A stretch of 64,000 bases of DNA from a phage: the sequence record PZ534534.1; one strand, 5' to 3'. Under the pieces are notes generated by a model. It was not told the origin of the DNA. It made no database searches and saw nothing but the letters and a program-made list of their open reading frames with translations. The position numbers and the translations under genes are program-made. This document shows positions 23,936-58,004 of this stretch, in pieces. Every line of letters begins with the position of its first letter. Positions within the stretch are counted from its first letter, which is position 1.

Positions 23936-24273
23936 GTTTGTGGAGAAATATCGTTAACTACGTGTGTGGCAATCCGACTCCTGAAGAGAAGAATGTTGTG
24001 ATTCACGATTTTACTAAAAGATCTCGTGAAAAAGATCTACTGCTAACAAAGGTGACTGATAAAGATCCTGCAGTAGGAGACTGGGCAGGTTTTGCGTTTA
24101 CATCGGACAAATACACCTTTAACAAAGGTGACTACCTTGTTGTAGATTTTAACGAAGACATTGAGGGTGCTGGACCTTACTATCAAACCCTTATTGTTGC
24201 AGGGTGTGTTAATCTCTCTGCAGGCATGCACAGTTTGATTCTTTTTGAGCTTGACTCTGAAGACCTTGAGTAG
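23932..24273 (+). CDS. hypothetical protein (113 aa)
   Basis: ORF overlapping upstream stop. Confidence 0.5.
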   Translation: MSLWRNIVNYVCGNPTPEEKNVVIHDFTKRSREKDLLLTKVTDKDPAVGDWAGFAFTSDKYTFNKGDYLVVDFNEDIEGAGPYYQTLIVAGCVNLSAGMHSLILFELDSEDLE

Positions 24274-52822: not shown

Positions 52823-53086
52823 ATGAAACGTCTGGATCAGCTTAAATTAGTTCAGTACATGGCCTACAGAATTCTTGAAGTCCAAAAAGGTAGCAAAAAA
52901 GAGGTTTGCGAGAAAGCTTATAAGATCTTTACTCGCAAAAAAGATGACTGGATGCTACGCCAGACCAAAAAATCCGATATCCTGGGGTACCTGGAAGAAG
53001 AGATCCGGCTTGAAGAGCAAGAAGAGATCCGCCGTAGTGAGGCAGATTATCAGGCAGCTTGGGAAAACTGGATGAGCAACAAATAA
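52823..53086 (+). CDS. early protein (87 aa)
   Basis: ATG after CATAAAGAGGAAAACATC (track start 52751 upstream in same frame). Confidence 0.5.
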   Translation: MKRLDQLKLVQYMAYRILEVQKGSKKEVCEKAYKIFTRKKDDWMLRQTKKSDILGYLEEEIRLEEQEEIRRSEADYQAAWENWMSNK

Positions 53087-53152
53087 TACAACAAGTTACA
53101 TGGTCAGGGGCAATAAAGCCCCTTGATCACATAAAAATTATGCTATCCTTGG

Positions 53153-53181
53153 TTGACAGGGATCGGCAGTTTTGCTATATT
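53153..53181 (+). promoter_or_regulatory. sigma70-type promoter (TTGACA-17-TATATT)
   Basis: Read directly upstream of 53232 gene. Confidence 0.55.
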
Positions 53182-53231
53182 CTTTTTTGAAGGGAAGTTG
53201 TAAGAAAATTAACTGAGAGGTAAAAAACACC

Positions 53232-53651
53232 ATGAACATTAAATCTGATAATCCGGCATATAGCTTTGATAACGCTTTTTGTCACGGTCCGGCGGCGAAA
53301 GGATTCGAAATCGATGGTAAACTAATTATTGTCAATGTTGACGGGGAAGAGGTTGCAGTATATCCGGTGGCGGACGTTAAAAGCCGTCTACAATGCCGCA
53401 TGGATGTTACCGCCTATCAGCTTGATCCGGTCCGCATAGTTGCCCTGGTCCTGGAAGAAGAAATTAAAGCCATGCACCATAGCAACAGATTTATTGGTGA
53501 CGCGCAGGATAATATGAAAGTATGCCGCCATAAAGTTAATGAAGTGCTTAAAGAGTACGGTTATAAAGATCTTATGATCAAACGTGAGGAAAAATTCCGC
53601 TACCGTAACGACCTGGCAAATCGGATTTTTGAAATATACGAATCATTATAA
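53232..53651 (+). CDS. early protein (139 aa)
   Basis: GAGAGG RBS; last gene of plus-strand early block. Confidence 0.55.
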   Translation: MNIKSDNPAYSFDNAFCHGPAAKGFEIDGKLIIVNVDGEEVAVYPVADVKSRLQCRMDVTAYQLDPVRIVALVLEEEIKAMHHSNRFIGDAQDNMKVCRHKVNEVLKEYGYKDLMIKREEKFRYRNDLANRIFEIYESL

Positions 53652-53670
53652 TTTTTTAACTGAATTATCA

Positions 53671-53699
53671 AGGGGCTTAGGCCCCTTTCTTTTTGTCTG
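53671..53699 (+). terminator. rho-independent terminator
   Basis: AGGGGC-tta-GCCCCT hairpin followed by TTCTTTTTG. Confidence 0.7.
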
Positions 53700-56098
53700 C
53701 TCTTCTCCTACCATAAACGGCCCTACCTGGCAAGTGGAATAATTGACTAGCTATTAATCCCACACACTGTACAAATATACATGGAAAATAACTATTGCAT
53801 AATTTTTCATTGTGTGGTAGCAAGGCCATTTTTGCCCGTTTTCTCTCCCAAAATTGCACGTAATGCCGCTATTGCATAAATTTTAACCTGATGCATATCT
53901 TCAATATCTTGTCAACAAATAAAAATTCTTATAAGTCATACACTTACACAACATCGAAAGCGTGTCCTATGCGAAAAATCGAGTATAACTATAGCCGCCA
54001 GATTTCAGAATTTACGTACGCTCACCATTCTATAGCTTGCTAAGTATTTATTCCAACCATAGAATAACGGAATAGTCAATACCTGCATAAAATAATTATT
54101 CGTTTAAATTGCATAACATAAATCAGCTCAGGTGTCAACATTTTTCGTAAACAGTCCGAAATTGTCACGGCAAGTTATCATAAGCAGAGAAATCTTTAGT
54201 CGTCTAATGTTTACTGTACGTTACTATACTAACTGGAATCATTAGATGACTAACAGAAAGATAAGAAATAATTAATAATGTAATTGTTTTACCTGTAACA
54301 ATAAGGCAACTATGCAAACGAATGGCATGGCGCGACGGAGTCGCGACATAATATAAAAGCAGTAACCATCACCCCCGTGATAGTTTGTCTGCAAACTATT
54401 AATCAGATCATAGTTGCCTTGTATTTAGTTAATCATGACATAACAAGCAAGGCAACTATAGATCTGCTAATAGTTGCCCTGCTTTTATATTATGTCATAT
54501 ATTATTAACTTGTTAATTGTTAACTTGCTAATTGTTTTCATGCAAACGAATGTCATGGCTTATCATATCTGTGTAAACTGTCAAGGTGTAAACAGTCTAT
54601 GCGGGAACAATCTATACGTGAACAGTGAAACATGAAATAATAACAGTCGTTATTGTGCCATATTGTGTCCGGTGTGTCAGACAAGTTTTTCTCCTCTTTG
54701 TCAAGTGCTGCATGAAAAATTTACAAACTGGTATGGTAGCATTTTTGCGGCCCTGTTTACATTCAGCGATGTATGTATAATCCTTGTTGTGTGGGCGTTT
54801 AGACGTCTAGACGGTTGGAAGTCTGCAGGTCAATATCTAATCTATTGGCTGCTAACTATATCCCACACAAATAGTAAGAAATATGATTGTTATATGCGTA
54901 AACTGTAACTCATGTTATCAATCCCTGTATGTATCGCCAGTGGTGCGCATAATGGGTATTATGTTAAATTGCCCGTAATGATAACTATTCTCACAATGAT
55001 AGGTATTCTCATTCACCCCCACAAGATAGGTTGCAAATGTTGTGCCACTGTGTGAACGGCCTCACCTATTAATTTGCCTCACTGCCTCGATATTTGAGAA
55101 TTATTATAAGAATGAGAAGTATTCCCATTTCGTCCGCCTGGCAGCACTCCAGTCGCTACCGCTCATGACAGGGCAGAACTAGACCCTCTTCAGATATTTC
55201 TGGCTGACTCTTCAGGTCTGTGTGGGAAAAGCCAACCTCTCCGGCGGGGAAGGGGAGGTCAATTAAAAAATTTACGTGGTGTATGAAGCGCTCTTCAGGT
55301 AAGGCATGTGTTATGGGATGAAACCCTCTTCAGGCAATGATATTTGTGGGTGTGATATTTGCTGGAAAGCCAGATATGACGGGACTCCCGGCGGGGCAGG
55401 GGTAGTACAGACAAGGAAAATGTGGGGATGTGGTGGGAGTAAATTGATCAGACAGGTAGAGTATGGAATATGTTACAGGTATGTTAAATAGGGAGGCTGA
55501 ATATCTGTAAGATTTGTGTGTAAAATCAAAGACTTAAGTGGTGTTGTGGTATTTTCTATAAATAATTCAAGTTTAATAGGTAATATTTGTCTCTATCCGC
55601 CTTGTGTGGTAAACAGATTCAGATGAGATTGGTTTACAAGTGTATACATAATATACAAATTAAAGATACAAGAAACCCCCCTCCCCCTTCGGCTACCATT
55701 CACCTTTTCCTCTGACTGGTACTTAAACACTTATTCAGACTCTTCAGGTTATCACCCATATATCATATGGCAGTGACTGGTGTCCTCCGGCCACTCTTTC
55801 GTCACCCGTCCGCTTCGCCATGCTAATGCCATAGCCAATGGTTCGGTTGTTCACCCTGTTCACTCAGGTGTATCTCCATACCCCTTCAAACCGAAGAGAA
55901 CAGAAAACCCGAATTACTCGGTAAAAGAAAAGAGAAGAACTTAATTTTATCAGGATAGGCAAGAATGTCAAGGCATGACTGCTCACTAAACAAGCAAACA
56001 GTCATGTGTGGGAGGTAAGTGATTGTGGTGGTAGGAAATTTAGTTGAAAGATGTGTTATAGGTGCTTCCAGCACTTTAGCCGGGCAGCTAATTGTGTG
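53700..56098. other. 2.4-kb gene-free strand-switch region with nested palindromes and iterated motifs (candidate replication origin / regulatory hub)
   Basis: No convincing ORF on either strand; inverted repeats, direct repeats and six CTCTTCAGG copies read directly. Confidence 0.5.
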
Positions 56099-56395
56099 TC
56101 AGTCCAGCGGTTCATCCTCTACTTCACTGAAATCAATATTCATGGTCTCTTCCCAACCATCGATCTCAGCACAAGAGTGGAGTTCTTTAGGGTTTACTCC
56201 CAAAGCCTCAGCAACAGAGTCTATATTTAACACCTCTGGCAGGTATGATTCATCGAATTCAAGGTAAATCAGGCCACGAGTGTTGTCAGCCCCACCAAAT
56301 ATTTCTATCTTCATAAAATCTCCTCTGGGAATGAGAGTGTGAACAGGGTTTTATACGTTCCAATGCACAAGAATTATACACGTTTGCCTCTTCAG
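55186..56395 (+). repeat. six dispersed copies of CTCTTCAGG-type motif, all in same orientation
   Basis: Copies at about 55186, 55208, 55291, 55326, 55740, 56387, read directly. Confidence 0.5.
56099..56314 (-). CDS. small acidic protein (71 aa)
   Basis: GAGGAG RBS 6 nt upstream on minus strand. Confidence 0.5.
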   Translation of the reverse strand: MKIEIFGGADNTRGLIYLEFDESYLPEVLNIDSVAEALGVNPKELHSCAEIDGWEETMNIDFSEVEDEPLD

Positions 56396-56435
56396 GCCAT
56401 GCTTTAGCATGAGGAACCTGTGTGGGCTCGGTGCT

Positions 56436-56648
56436 TCATAGTCTACCACCTCTGAACTCTTCGTGCTCAGGCATAATAGAGAACCAGATATCTACGATGT
56501 CCTCCCACGTCAGGTCATCAGCCTCAGGATCTGTCTGGGACGAAGATGAAGAGTCCTCAGAATCTAAGTTTTCCTCTTTAACTGGCTCATCCAAGGGACA
56601 TATGGTCACTCCTTCGGATGTCTCTTCAGATGCATGTGTGTTGATCAT
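56436..56648 (-). CDS. small acidic Ser/Glu/Asp-rich protein (70 aa)
   Basis: ORF with GGGTGGA RBS. Confidence 0.45.
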   Translation of the reverse strand: MINTHASEETSEGVTICPLDEPVKEENLDSEDSSSSSQTDPEADDLTWEDIVDIWFSIMPEHEEFRGGRL

Positions 56649-57008
56649 GTTCCACCCGTGAGTATTCCGGCAACAGCCGCTATGGACGTAATGATCATCA
56701 GGATCACCACTAAAACTTCGGACAATGTTCTCATTGTGTACTCCATATTCTACAAACTATGTGTGGATACTATCACTGGATCGGTAATGTGTCAACAGAA
56801 ACGCCGCGAGGGTTTGGTTAAAATCCGAGCGTATGGTGATTTGGGTCAAAACGGACGTGCGTTCTCGCTACGCTCGAAAGAGAGATTTGTTTGTAGGAAG
56901 CTCTTAAACGCTCTGTAACGAGATTATCTGTCCAAGGTATGCAATCGTGCACCAGATAAAGAAAAGGACGCCACAGAGCGTCCTAGGTGTCTTAAATTTG
57001 ATATTTTG

Positions 57009-57320
57009 CTATACCCATGAGGGCTTATCAAGGTTGGAGTAGCTGAAAGGTGTCAAAAGGTGACTGTCAAAATCTCTCAAACTATCCAAATCTTTTTCCT
57101 CGTCCTGACACCATCTGTGCCTACATTTATTGTTGTAGTGCATAGAATGCATAGCGTTCTGCAACTTAACAGGCACAAGTGATTCAGGAGTAGATAGTAT
57201 TGTTGGGTATGCCAGAACCACCTCAAACAGTGGAAACACATCGAAACTAAAGTCTACCTCTGCAGAGGTTGATGGCATGTAAGAGTATTTAGCCGCCTTT
57301 GTAGACATAATCCACCTCAC
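57009..57320 (-). CDS. hypothetical protein (103 aa)
   Basis: ORF overlapping upstream gene by 4 nt. Confidence 0.5.
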   Translation of the reverse strand: MRWIMSTKAAKYSYMPSTSAEVDFSFDVFPLFEVVLAYPTILSTPESLVPVKLQNAMHSMHYNNKCRHRWCQDEEKDLDSLRDFDSHLLTPFSYSNLDKPSWV

Positions 57321-57643
57321 ACAGGTTTGATAATACCTTTACCGAATAACTCTTCGTATCTAATCTTATCCGGATCCCACTCCTGGATAATTTCGAAGAC
57401 AATATCCAACCCTGGGATAATCACTTCTCCAGTGTCGAGCTTAGCAAGAACAAAACCGGAGGGTTGAATGGTTTCCCAGTTGCGCCGATTGGAATAGAAG
57501 ACCTCGAAAATATCGCCGACCTTTATCTGTTGATCAAGATGTTCAAGATTCTCTTTCATATAGACGCAGCGGATTTTTCGTGCAGGCCATAGACCACCTG
57601 CATCACGTTCATTCAATTCTTTTACAGTGATAGGTATACCCAT
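57317..57643 (-). CDS. hypothetical protein (108 aa)
   Basis: ORF in array. Confidence 0.5.
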   Translation of the reverse strand: MGIPITVKELNERDAGGLWPARKIRCVYMKENLEHLDQQIKVGDIFEVFYSNRRNWETIQPSGFVLAKLDTGEVIIPGLDIVFEIIQEWDPDKIRYEELFGKGIIKPV

Positions 57644-57698: not shown

Positions 57699-58004
57699 TT
57701 ATTCTACAGAGCGTTTGAACAGAATGTCTGCCTCGGACATGTGCTCAACCTCTTCTTCGATTTTAGCTCGACGTTTTTCAGCCTCATAGCGAATATCGAA
57801 CTCGGTAGCCACCAGAGATTTGATGAATTTAGGAGAATACAGGTGATCCTGCTTCTCAACGAGAATGATATCCTTGATGGCATCTTTCAGATCTTTAATC
57901 TGAAGTTGGAGTTCCACCAGTTCTTCGATTGTTTTGCGAAGGCGATCACGCTCTGCAGTGTCAGAAGGAAGAGAGGTGAACAGTTCAACTTTAGATTTAG
58001 CCAT
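57699..58004 (-). CDS. coiled-coil protein (101 aa)
   Basis: Glu/Lys/Leu-rich heptad-like sequence. Confidence 0.5.
   Translation of the reverse strand: MAKSKVELFTSLPSDTAERDRLRKTIEELVELQLQIKDLKDAIKDIILVEKQDHLYSPKFIKSLVATEFDIRYEAEKRRAKIEEEVEHMSEADILFKRSVE

Follow-up and report, generated by a model that had tools for sequence, protein, structure and literature searches.

Why should a 9-bp sequence recur in one orientation within and beside a gene-free stretch of phage DNA? An exact-match scan of the window (the whole 64-kb stretch of DNA that was analyzed) finds five copies of CTCTTCAGG on the plus strand, starting at 55208, 55291, 55326, 55740 and 56388. A first-pass annotation of the locus had listed six; the copy that it placed at 55186 (CTCTTCAGA) matches at eight of the nine positions only, and its last copy starts at 56388 rather than 56387. 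A second 8/9 match, at 56622, falls within an ORF. All seven copies in the cluster lie on the same strand, as the annotation had it, and its claim that such clustering is not expected by chance is borne out: the clustering is far above chance, with 0.65 copies of CTCTTCAGG expected per 64-kb window and six copies reached in none of 100 shuffles. One further exact copy in the window is found on the minus strand at 23980. The cluster copies are irregularly spaced (22, 83, 35, 414 and 648 bp) and have only the 9-bp core in common, the flanks of different copies within one genome being unrelated. The motif is asymmetric and is best read on the minus strand, as CCTGAAGAG, with the core CCTGAAG[A/T]G. 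The copies are as follows, with distances given to the direct terminal repeat (DTR) described below.

55186–55194, minus strand: weak copy 1, TCTGAAGAG, an 8/9 match 48 bp from the DTR
55208–55216, minus strand: copy 2 ('P-type'), exact CCTGAAGAG, 70 bp from the DTR boundary
55291–55299, minus strand: copy 3, exact match
55326–55334, minus strand: copy 4, exact match
55740–55748, minus strand: copy 5, exact match, within a near-invariant non-coding block
56388–56396, minus strand: copy 6, exact match, intergenic, between two small early genes
56622–56630, minus strand: 8/9 copy within the ORF at 56436–56648, probably a chance match outside the element

The clustering is local rather than genome-wide. 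The complete rV5 genome holds nine copies of CTCTTCAGG on both strands, against about 1.2 expected, and five of the nine fall within the 1.2-kb cluster. The remaining copies are in coding DNA; three of them, on the same strand as the cluster, sit in the gene 82–163 block, by coordinate within the CDSs annotated gp100, thymidylate-synthase and nrdD. The frequency of the 9-mer, on which the first-pass annotation had made its observation depend, does not match random expectation, and so the finding stands. The description of the region as gene-free is likewise right in substance, since the curated rV5 annotation has no ORF at 104013–106618 and the rV5 authors label this stretch 'non-coding' (PMC3606486).

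The window is from a Vequintavirus (rV5-like), whose genome ends meet in the gene-free region; this is the concatemer junction. Phage Gotham has two identical terminal repeat_regions of 459 bp, which map onto a single segment of the window at 95% identity, and the Pr121LW record begins exactly at window position 54680.

54680–55138, no strand assigned: DTR, 459 bp, from the Gotham terminal repeat_regions mapped onto the window

The DTR is present once in the window, as in a concatemer or a circularized assembly, and to judge from these records both of its edges are physical genome ends. Its length agrees with the 458–459 bp given for Vequintavirus terminal repeats (PMC7471380; PMC6563267), and there is experimental evidence of terminal repeats both for the genus and for the subfamily (the same papers and PMC9862379); the original rV5 paper took the genome to be circularly permuted (PMC3606486). 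The sequences at the DTR boundaries also resemble those of KPP-1, for which a DTR of 514 bp was derived from coverage and PhageTerm and T7-type packaging assigned (PMC9862379). The array starts 48–70 bp from the DTR boundary at 55138, on the early-gene side, and its copies are strung over the last 1.3 kb of that side, all toward the DTR boundary. The motif is absent from the 1 kb on the other side (53690–54679) and from the interior of the window's DTR.

Comparison of 12 Vequintaviruses indicates that the motif is conserved as a set of islands. One of 45 motif columns is variable, versus 303 of 1036 (29%) non-coding columns outside the motif (Fisher p = 5e-6; block permutation p = 0.009). No column varies in copies 2, 3 and 4, against 15, 18 and 16 of 60 in their respective flanks, and one of nine varies in copy 6, against 17 of 60. 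Copy 6 is kept in L153 despite a directly adjacent 46-bp insertion. Both 8/9 copies are degenerate in most relatives: weak copy 1 has two of nine columns variable, and the 56622 copy is degenerate in L153 and gone in ECP26.

The motif recurs at the same place in other genera. Across six genomes of Vequintavirus, Mydovirus and Seunavirus, which are not independent since PVP-SE1 and GEC_vB_MG are closely related, the 1600 bp that lead up to G[AG]CGGAC, the conserved signature of the DTR start, contain 23 forward and no inverted copies of CCTGAAG[AT]G. The density of this core before the DTR is 2.4 per kb. Elsewhere in rV5 it is 0.037 per kb, and 85.8 kb of DNA from outside the junctions of six relatives has no copy, which gives the junction an excess of about 60-fold or more above background. 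The background came from the loci of the 'transcriptional regulator' gene (57699–58004 in the window), which we had tried as a synteny anchor; in other genera this gene lies in the replication-gene block, so that synteny across the gap is lost. An 87-aa protein on the far side of the gap also failed as an anchor, the window and KPP-1 proteins not being homologous. In the Serratia phage Kashira, a 5.2-kb stretch near the predicted DTR holds two exact copies. The Erwinia Henunavirus junction retains the DTR-start signature and is without the motif, both in a 5.3-kb locus and within 2.4 kb.

This recurrence appears to follow the junction and not particular genes. The small early genes beside the junction turn over rapidly between genera, and copy-to-boundary distances differ, with a spread of up to 1.5 kb in 4MG and GAP31. 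A tblastx search of the window against the KPP-1 junction flanks gives no protein-level similarity, and blastn against the KPP-1 junctions gives four weak, short matches only (E 0.003–0.37), all collinear, of which two are the motif and its flanks (17 nt at 94% and 14 nt at 100% identity). Copy 2 is part of a 17-nt island, GACCTGAAGAGTCAGCC, which Mydovirus and Seunavirus also conserve; the homologue of this copy is combined with a promoter and an 8-bp hairpin in GAP31 and KPP-1, neither of which is present in Vequintavirus. The context of copy 6, CCCACACA...GCCTGAAGAGGC, is the counterpart of the Mydovirus/Seunavirus copy in a terminator loop ('T-type'), and weak copy 1 is the positional counterpart of a 'D-type' copy, AAAATATCCTGAAGAGG, that lies 63 bp ahead of the DTR in both 4MG and GAP31. 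On the evidence of the copy 2 homologues, and of copy 6 in L153, the motif sequence seems to persist where its surroundings do not. All six Mydovirus-like sequences (KPP-1 and five IMG/VR contigs) carry an inverted copy 88 bp inside the DTR. One of these contigs, L178, has in addition a D-type copy about 60 bp before the DTR, so that opposed copies, one forward and outside, one inverted and inside, bracket the cut site. Judged by sequence comparison, the motif is a real, conserved signal of the genome-end region.

Two sets of IMG/VR matches were set aside. Contigs L144 and L160 have a DTR-end signature and one inverted copy and are otherwise AT-rich, unrelated and protein-coding in appearance; they were put down to chance. 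Paired copies of the form CCTGAAGAG-N20-50-CCTGAAGAG have, among the matches listed, spacings that are mostly multiples of three, and those matches are taken to be unrelated coding repeats.

The DNA between and beside the copies has further features.

55235–55257, minus strand: GC-rich hairpin 1, between copies 3 and 2, followed by UUGGCUUUUCC
55383–55405, minus strand: GC-rich hairpin 2, counterpart of hairpin 1 across copies 4 and 3, weaker and conserved in part
55944–55971, minus strand: predicted sigma70-type promoter with extended -10, TTGACA-16-TGaTAAAAT, 11/12 consensus
55677–56000, minus strand: near-invariant non-coding block, downstream of the promoter, in Vequintavirus only

Hairpin 1 with the UUGGCUUUUCC that follows it on the minus strand is a candidate intrinsic terminator for DTR-bound transcription, and its stem is kept in relatives through differing sequences (CCUCUCC/GGGGAGG, CCCCUCC/GGAGGGG and CCUUUCC/GGGGAGG). 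A search for terminators in this region by the rV5 authors was negative (PMC3606486). The early-gene array has no strong intrinsic terminator past its last gene; the opposite array has one, at 53670–53687. The predicted promoter points leftward, across the invariant block and copies 5 to 1, to the DTR. Its hexamers are invariant, even in L153, where the spacer is rewritten and 2 bp longer. The block is 97–100% identical in 10 relatives and about 99% in L153, compared with 81% for the whole L153 segment at 55257–57000 and about 88%, by eye rather than by computation, for the adjacent coding DNA at 56129–56329. It is a candidate non-coding RNA or DNA element; the folding energy is -86 kcal/mol for the minus strand (z = -1.8) and -54 kcal/mol for the plus strand (z = -0.1). 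An Rfam E-value scan of both strands of 53000–57500 returned no family at E <= 1, and a tRNA/tmRNA scan of the window found none.

Any explanation has to accommodate what is established here: clustering, orientation, adjacency to the DTR, island conservation within the genus, and recurrence across genera beside different neighbor genes. The reading that we tentatively favor, well short of calling it probable, is that the motif is an orientation-locked recognition site of a genome-end module for concatemer-junction cutting and packaging; control of early transcription is almost equally likely. A phage-encoded, sequence-specific factor would read the sites on the DNA, and the sites would mark the early-gene side of the junction for cutting and for the packaging of unit genomes. 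The sigma70 promoter firing through the array to the DTR (55971 to 55944) may take part, in the manner of phiOR in T7. We infer all three elements of this scheme, namely protein binding, action on DNA rather than RNA, and packaging as the process served. That the copies might be packaging recognition repeats was among the first-pass suggestions, and it gains real support from the array's position against the boundary of the 459-bp DTR and from the link to the DTR across genera.

Known packaging sites offer a partial match. P1 pac has TGATCA/G hexamers in groups of 4 + 3, SPP1 has pacL and pacR, and lambda cosB has the R sites; P1 pac, SPP1 pac and cosB are compact (~100–200 bp), and small terminase binding to them has been shown. 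The likeness lies in several copies of a short asymmetric word near a cut that makes a genome end, here with an exact copy 70 bp and a weak copy 48 bp from the boundary, and, for P1 and SPP1, in the opposed copies that bracket the cut of the Mydovirus-like L178 at about -60 and +88. The copies in the window, however, are spread over 1.2 kb rather than 200 bp or less, and reach 1.3–1.5 kb when other genomes are included; copies 1–4 on their own (55186–55334) would fit a compact site. Nor is the motif kept wherever the cleavage site is kept. It is absent from the related genus Henunavirus, whose DTR-start signature without the motif implies that cleavage at the DTR boundary is not strictly motif-dependent. 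The spread of 1.3–1.5 kb, the irregular spacing and the location of some copies between genes sit poorly with packaging, and several sister-genus copies are integral to terminators and sigma70 promoters, which points to transcription. The rV5 annotation contains no small-terminase gene.

T7 is a second precedent. It reportedly has the SRL and SRR repeat arrays and a pacB/phiOR/junction pause region. The arrays flank the terminal repeat on either side and comprise some 12 heptamer copies in ~170 bp; their role is not firmly established. As in T7, the window has a short DTR with defined ends, imperfect short repeats of one orientation in the adjoining non-coding DNA, and a promoter firing toward the junction; KPP-1, moreover, was placed in the T7-type packaging class by PhageTerm (PMC9862379). 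The differences are that five copies of a 9-mer here extend over 1.2 kb on one side only, instead of forming arrays on both sides, that the polymerase is the host sigma70 enzyme and not a phage polymerase, and that the repeat sequences are unrelated.

It is almost as likely that the motif is linked to transcription, as a DNA or nascent-RNA site that terminates, pauses or regulates DTR-bound early transcription, or as an operator or activator box. In one form of this explanation the junction would be insulated from incoming RNA polymerase. All copies point the same way as the adjacent early-gene array (23 to 0), and the inverted copies of Mydovirus and Kashira are oriented like the opposing array. 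In Mydovirus and Seunavirus the motif tops a strong intrinsic terminator (GGGAGCC-TGAAGA-GGCTCC-TTTTCTTTT, -16 kcal/mol), overlaps, about 50 nt further on, the -35/spacer of a TTGACC-17-TATACT promoter preceding a gene, and forms the loop of an 8-bp hairpin past the last gene. The lack of a strong terminator after the last gene of the window's early array, where the opposite array has one, also speaks for such a site, and the conserved promoter would drive transcription across copies 5 to 1. The flanking genes of Henunavirus, which lacks the motif, read away from the DTR, so that no transcription enters from that side. On the other hand, copies 3–5 of the window show neither a terminator-like fold nor any other consistent one, hairpin 1, which resembles a terminator, lies upstream of copies 2 and 1, the spacing from motif to -10 is not kept (46-bp insertion in L153), and one of the Kashira copies is antisense to its local genes. 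The motif is also absent from the ~33 annotated rV5 promoters elsewhere in the genome, which would be unusual for a regulator.

The first-pass annotation had offered sites for an initiator or regulator, and promoters for a non-host RNA polymerase. The copies may be regulator sites, because two syntenic sister-genus copies overlap the -35/spacer of sigma70-type promoters; an initiator site is poorly supported, for reasons given below. The polymerase proposal finds no support, as the motif is not spread before genes and is confined to 1.2 kb. Plus-strand promoters were rejected, inspection having found no consistent -10 element downstream of the motif on that strand. The related Certrevirus CB7 has no reported RNA-polymerase gene (PMC7344957), and the rV5 authors infer transcription by the host RNA polymerase from sigma70 promoters (PMC3606486). 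Reading the motif as a -30 box of activator-dependent promoters (CCTGAAGAG-N9-10-TATAAT) suits copy 6 as well as the copies in KPP-1 and GAP31. It breaks down at copies 3 and 5, and at copy 6 of L153, where the 46-bp insertion disrupts the spacing.

The terminator and promoter contexts recall the PeSL cassettes of T4-type phages, which are reportedly spread through hyperplastic regions and defined by the whole cassette. Mydovirus and Seunavirus resemble them in that a stem-loop terminator precedes an early sigma70 promoter in the space between small early ORFs, with the motif occurring twice; this arrangement is present at the T-type and promoter copies of KPP-1, 4MG and GAP31 and absent at window copies 2–5. 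Unlike in PeSLs, the conserved part is the 9-mer and not the cassette, and it is confined to the junction-proximal 1.5 kb; in Vequintavirus the copies occur outside any such cassette.

We consider it unlikely that the motif works at the RNA level, in the loops of hairpins that form on early transcripts and on a non-coding RNA from the 55971 promoter, where an RNA-binding protein or nuclease would read it or the inverted copies would pair with it. Many copies lie between short inverted repeats of differing sequence (GGAGCC/GGCTCC, GGGTTGAC/GTCAGCCC, GCC/GGC, GAC/GTC) and would thus be presented as a loop, and the block holding copy 5, behind its conserved promoter, is more conserved than coding DNA. 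There is also a precedent in the relative PhiTE, whose non-coding escape locus yields a functional non-coding RNA, pseudo-ToxI (PMC3475682). Yet no fold is common to the copies, Vequintavirus copies 3–5 being unstructured, and the stems in the window are just 3–4 bp. Promoter-embedded copies lie upstream of their own transcription start, and the position of copies 2 and 1 beyond the likely terminator argues against a purely RNA-level role. No Rfam family was matched, the hammerhead ribozyme included, even though the motif contains CUGANGA; CUGAAGA occurs on the minus strand, and inspection showed no GAAA/stem II arrangement after any copy. A CsrA-type sponge is rejected because the motif has no GGA.

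One RNA analog is boxB of the lambda nut sites, with nutL GCCCUGAAGAAGGGC, the core CCCUGAAGAAGGG and a GAAGA pentaloop on a 5-bp stem. On the minus strand the motif reads CCUGAAGAGG, one base short of CCCUGAAGAAGGG, and some copies fold into small hairpins topped by the purine-rich loop. They differ from boxB in having a predicted GAAG tetraloop or a loop of 6–7 nt, on the short stems of the window noted above. No boxA accompanies the motif on the same strand, the only boxA-like string being CGCTCTT at copy 3 on the opposite strand, and no N-like protein was found among the neighboring small proteins scanned. Pfam and PHROG scans of eight such proteins gave no domain naming a binding partner.

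Somewhat less probable again is that the 9-mer is the word of an orientation-dependent system that guards or processes the genome ends of the Vequintavirinae and involves a new protein. In one form, by analogy with Ter/Tus or Chi, a phage factor might act as a polar barrier that arrests the host RNA polymerase, or a nuclease entering from the end, before the DTR. Were such a barrier and the ultra-conserved block both real, junction-bound transcription could be coupled to genome maturation at the DTR, by a host-polymerase-dependent route.

It is improbable that the motif is functionless and that its copies are relics of duplicated, PeSL-like terminator–promoter cassettes in the plastic early region by the genome end. 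The cassette of Mydovirus and Seunavirus, which carries two motif copies 52 bp apart and lies between small ORFs, and the rapid turnover of small early genes between genera speak for such a history. However, the unrelated flanks of different copies within a genome indicate that they are not recent duplicates, the 9-mer is an invariant island amid variable flanks, and across genera it outlasts the decay of promoter and terminator features. An orientation bias of 23 to 0 and an excess of ~60-fold or more would be hard to maintain without selection.

Least probable of all are replication-origin iterons that bind an initiator, or a Chi-like end-protection signal read by a helicase-nuclease entering at the end: the region does coincide with a GC-skew switch, an enzyme entering at the 54680 end would meet every copy from its 3' side, as the Chi orientation rule demands, and the inverted copies in the Mydovirus DTR have the right orientation for an enzyme entering from the other end, but iterons are tandem, regularly spaced repeats of ~17–22 bp beside an AT-rich unwinding element, and here the core is 9 bp, the spacing irregular, and a tandem array or clear unwinding element lacking. 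The motif differs from E. coli Chi (GCTGGTGG), of which the window has no copy, Vequintavirus has no motif copies to protect its other end, and we know of no enzyme that recognizes this 9-mer. The skew switch is explained equally well by the change in transcription direction (PMC3606486).

That the genome ends are placed inside the 2.4–2.6-kb 'non-coding' block of rV5 matters in practice. For phages of this group, records are best opened at the DTR (window 54680) and not at arbitrary points, and in engineering or rebooting these phages the array and the neighboring invariant block should be left intact. The rV5-like phages rank with the coliphages most frequently isolated, and therapy cocktails include them. 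Concatemer-junction processing is, to our knowledge, understood in detail only for T7-like podoviruses; the 9-mer, orientation-locked in several genera, is the clearest repeated, strand-locked candidate for a cis signal beside the DTR, and offers a handle on this processing in a large myovirus that has a short DTR and no RNA polymerase of its own.

One further feature lies inside the DTR itself. ToxI- or pseudo-ToxI-like tandem repeats of ~36 nt are absent, and the only tandem repeat found is an 18-bp unit at 54977–55011.

At the level of sequence, the 9-mer array is real and more than a chance k-mer cluster. Whilst the first-pass annotation counted six same-orientation copies of CTCTTCAGG, only five are exact, all on the + strand (55208, 55291, 55326, 55740 and 56388; copies 2 to 6). 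The remaining one, at 55186 (copy 1), matches at 8 of 9 positions (CTCTTCAGA), as does a further site at 56622 (copy 7), and one distant exact copy lies on the - strand at 23980. The claim of clustering beyond chance is borne out, with 0.65 copies expected in the window and six reached in 0 of 100 shuffles, and an unbiased k-mer count ranks CTCTTCAG(G) as the top 8-mer and 9-mer of the region. The genome-wide count that had been proposed as a check gives nine copies on both strands of the complete rV5 genome against ~1.2 expected, five of them within the same 1.2-kb stretch. Three others on the same strand (79577, 80444 and 87078) fall in the gene 82-163 block, by coordinate inside the annotated gp100, thymidylate-synthase and nrdD CDSs. 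The window and rV5 counts thus indicate strong local clustering and not dispersed, promoter-like use.

The window region 54000-57500 is matched at 90-97% identity by 122 phage records, nearly all of them Vequintavirus, rV5-like E. coli myoviruses. As first noted, the region is gene-free: curated rV5 has no ORFs at 104013-106618 (window about 53690-56099), a 2.6-kb stretch flanked by two converging arrays of small early genes. The rV5 authors drew this stretch as a 'non-coding' box in a genome taken as circularly permuted, located the GC-skew switch there, and expected bidirectional terminators within it but found none (PMC3606486). We identify the gap as the concatemer junction, since the Gotham record carries at its ends two identical 459-bp repeat_regions that align with 54680-55138 of the window (95% identity), the Pr121LW record, deposited independently, starts exactly at 54680, and relatives have reported terminal repeats. 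These are 458-bp terminal redundancies in two other Vequintaviruses (PMC6563267) and, in the Mydovirus KPP-1, a 514-bp direct terminal repeat (DTR) defined by two-fold coverage and by PhageTerm, the packaging being T7-type (PMC9862379). Many Vequintavirus GenBank records are opened at arbitrary points and not at the DTR. Nineteen records named 'Campylobacter phage' (one, A135, marked UNVERIFIED) are 91-96% identical to this region of E. coli Vequintavirus; they probably carry a mistaken host label or come from contaminated samples. Along the + strand the junction is laid out as follows.

Layout of the junction in the window
53670-53687: strong terminator of the left gene block, the leftmost part of the layout
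Next 1 kb: non-coding DNA between the left gene block and the DTR
54680-55138: DTR, present as a single copy that marks the physical genome ends (Gotham and Pr121LW mapping)
Next ~47 bp: variable spacer between the DTR and copy 1
Right of the spacer: copies 1-4 (55186, 55208, 55291, 55326) and two GC-rich hairpins
Beyond copies 1-4: G/T-rich stretch, before the near-invariant block
55677-56000: near-invariant block containing copy 5 (55740)
Right end: right gene block, - strand, with copy 6 (56388) in its last intergenic space

Motif copies keep their positions in ten GenBank relatives, with copy 1 degenerate in most and copies 6 and 7 missing from ECP26. A diverged IMG/VR contig (L153), only ~85% identical to the window, retains copies 2-6 exactly, with copies 1 and 7 degenerate. 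Its copy 6 is intact in spite of an adjoining 46-bp insertion (relative to window 56387), which itself ends in a degenerate second motif copy (GCGAAAGAG on the - strand). Of the 45 motif columns only one varies across 12 genomes, whereas 303 of the 1036 remaining non-coding columns do so (Fisher p = 5e-6), and five random 9-column blocks are equally invariant in only 0.9% of trials. In the same genomes 25-30% of columns vary in the ±30-bp flanks of copies 2, 3, 4 and 6, and the flanks of different copies within one genome are unrelated. It follows from these invariant columns amid variable, mutually unrelated flanks that the 9-mer itself is the conserved unit.

In KPP-1, too, the DTR occupies a gap of this kind where small-gene arrays converge. 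Comparison of the window and KPP-1 junctions by tblastx gave no protein similarity, and blastn gave only four weak, short, collinear matches (E 0.003-0.37). These comprise the motif with flanks (GACCTGAAGAGTCA exact, GACCTGAAGnGTCAGCC at 94%), an element within both DTRs and a TTGACA element beyond the DTR. The DTR boundaries are also alike, starting G[G/A]CGGAC and ending TTTGTAAATTT...CTTGACAArGAG; the Klebsiella phage DP record starts exactly at the KPP-1 DTR end. Distant homologues of the KPP-1 junction DNA occur in Seunavirus (PVP-SE1, 4MG, GAP31, GEC_vB_MG), Erwinia Henunavirus and Serratia phage Kashira. Six genomes from three genera, not all of them independent, together have 23 forward copies and no inverted copy of CCTGAAG[AT]G (the motif as it reads on the window's - strand) within the 1600 bp that precede the DTR-start signature, each genome having 3-5 copies against 0.014-0.03 expected. 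The motif's density there is 2.4 per kb; elsewhere in rV5 it is 0.037 per kb, and 85.8 kb of DNA from outside the junction in six relatives contains no copy. Two exact copies occur in 5.2 kb of Kashira, and none in the Henunavirus junction locus, where the DTR-start signature is nevertheless present and the flanking genes point away from the DTR. Each of the six Mydovirus-like sequences, namely KPP-1 and five contigs from IMG/VR, has an inverted copy 88 bp into the DTR. One of these contigs, L178, has a further forward copy ~60 bp outside the DTR, so that opposed copies bracket its cut site.

Mydovirus and Seunavirus copies hold syntenic positions, which we denote as follows.

Contexts of motif copies in Mydovirus and Seunavirus
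T-type copy: top of a strong intrinsic terminator, GGGAGCC-TGAAGA-GGCTCC-TTTTCTTTT (-16 kcal/mol)
Promoter copy: ~50 nt beyond the T-type copy, overlapping both -35 and spacer of a sigma70 promoter in front of a gene, TTGACCTGAAGnGTC...TATACT
P-type copy: after the last gene, GGGTTGAC-CTGAAGA-GTCAGCCC, homologue of window copy 2
D-type copy: AAAATATCCTGAAGAGG, 63 bp before the DTR, counterpart of window copy 1

The P-type copy is both an 8-bp hairpin and a TTGACC-17-TATGCT promoter. Its homologue, window copy 2, has lost the promoter and most of the stem, and window copies 3-5 have no hairpin comparable to those of the sister genera. The motif sequence outlasts the promoters and structures in which it is set. 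At one KPP-1 site, stop codon, terminator hairpin and motif coincide: the annotated CDS 1191-1694 ends in TGA inside the motif (CC-TGA-AGAG, 1690-1694).

The best sigma70-like site of the region is on the - strand (TTGACA 55971-55966, extended -10 TGaTAAAAT ending at 55944) and points to the DTR, with the invariant block and copies 5 to 1 in its path. Its hexamers are invariant and its spacer is rewritten and 2 bp longer in L153, the pattern of a working promoter. The non-coding block at 55677-56000 (~300 nt) is 97-100% identical in all relatives, above neighbouring coding DNA. It has no Rfam match, is found by blastn only in Vequintavirus, and gives a far stronger fold from its - strand (-86 kcal/mol, z = -1.8) than from its + strand (-54 kcal/mol). 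The block is a candidate for a novel non-coding RNA or cis element, and at 55921-55909 it contains a weak terminator-like hairpin. The GC-rich hairpin between copies 3 and 2 (hairpin 1, 55235-55257) has a stem upheld by differing sequences in different phages through compensatory changes. Since UUGGCUUUUCC follows it on the - strand, it looks like the array's missing terminator, and is probably the one separating genes 163 and 164 for which the rV5 authors looked in vain. Both VB-EcoM-WM and L153 have a ~67-bp insertion after this hairpin (relative to window 55262). The + strand is strongly G/T-rich at 55405-55670 (TGTGGGGATGTGGTGGGAG, GTGGTGTTGTGG and similar), so a - strand transcript would be C/A-rich and G-poor, resembling a Rho-utilisation site.

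The 9-mer is thus clustered and strictly oriented beside the DTR boundary, forms a conserved island in the genus, and in sister genera recurs with position and orientation unchanged, beside genes that are unrelated. We infer a sequence-specific reader; none of the small proteins encoded nearby has a Pfam domain, and so no binding partner can be named. The array is best classed with the terminus-proximal repeated cis signals of phages having terminal repeats. We tentatively favour the 9-mer as a DNA-level site of a genome-end module, whose copies would mark or process the concatemer junction for packaging. This reading is favoured because the motif is associated with the junction and not with particular genes, because copies 2 and 1 lie beyond the putative terminator at hairpin 1, and because opposed copies bracket the cut in L178. 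P1 pac, SPP1 pacL/pacR and lambda cosB are precedents, as is the T7 junction with its repeat arrays and phiOR promoter. The main rival, a possibility we rate slightly lower, is a role for the motif in controlling early transcription that enters the DTR. Consistent with this, the motif is built into terminators and promoters of sister genera, its orientation is always that of the incoming gene array, the window's own array has no strong terminator, and Henunavirus, which has no genes reading into the DTR, also has no motif. A purely RNA-level element is improbable, a functionless relic of duplicated cassettes more so, and origin iterons or a Chi-like signal least probable of all. The papers and GenBank records examined contain no description of such an element for rV5-like phages, a widely used group.

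TGTGTGG/CCACACA occurs 34 times in the whole window against 9.7 expected, and a CACACA(A/G) tract lies 0-25 nt before nearly every motif copy in all genera examined. One such CACACA tract, at 56766-56760, directly follows a -10 box, and these tracts may be markers of transcription starts or of early-transcript 5' leaders. Across the DTR from the array, 54296-54496 is dense in repeats, with a perfect 18-nt inverted repeat (54345-54362/54479-54496) and ATAGTTGCC/GGCAACTAT in several copies, both direct and inverted; immediately past this segment, at 54500-54650, conservation falls off steeply. Within the DTR, an 18-bp tandem repeat (AATGATAACTATTCTCAC twice and a diverged third copy; 54977-55011, 55111-55127) carries a repeat_region annotation in naswa, magaca and Alma, and GAATGAGA-type words are also repeated in the KPP-1 DTR. 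The DTR further contains a CRP-like site at 55051-55065 (TGTGAACGGCCTCAC, TGTGA-N6-TCAC) and a palindrome at 54796-54813 (CGTTTAGACGTCTAGACG) that is kept in L153.
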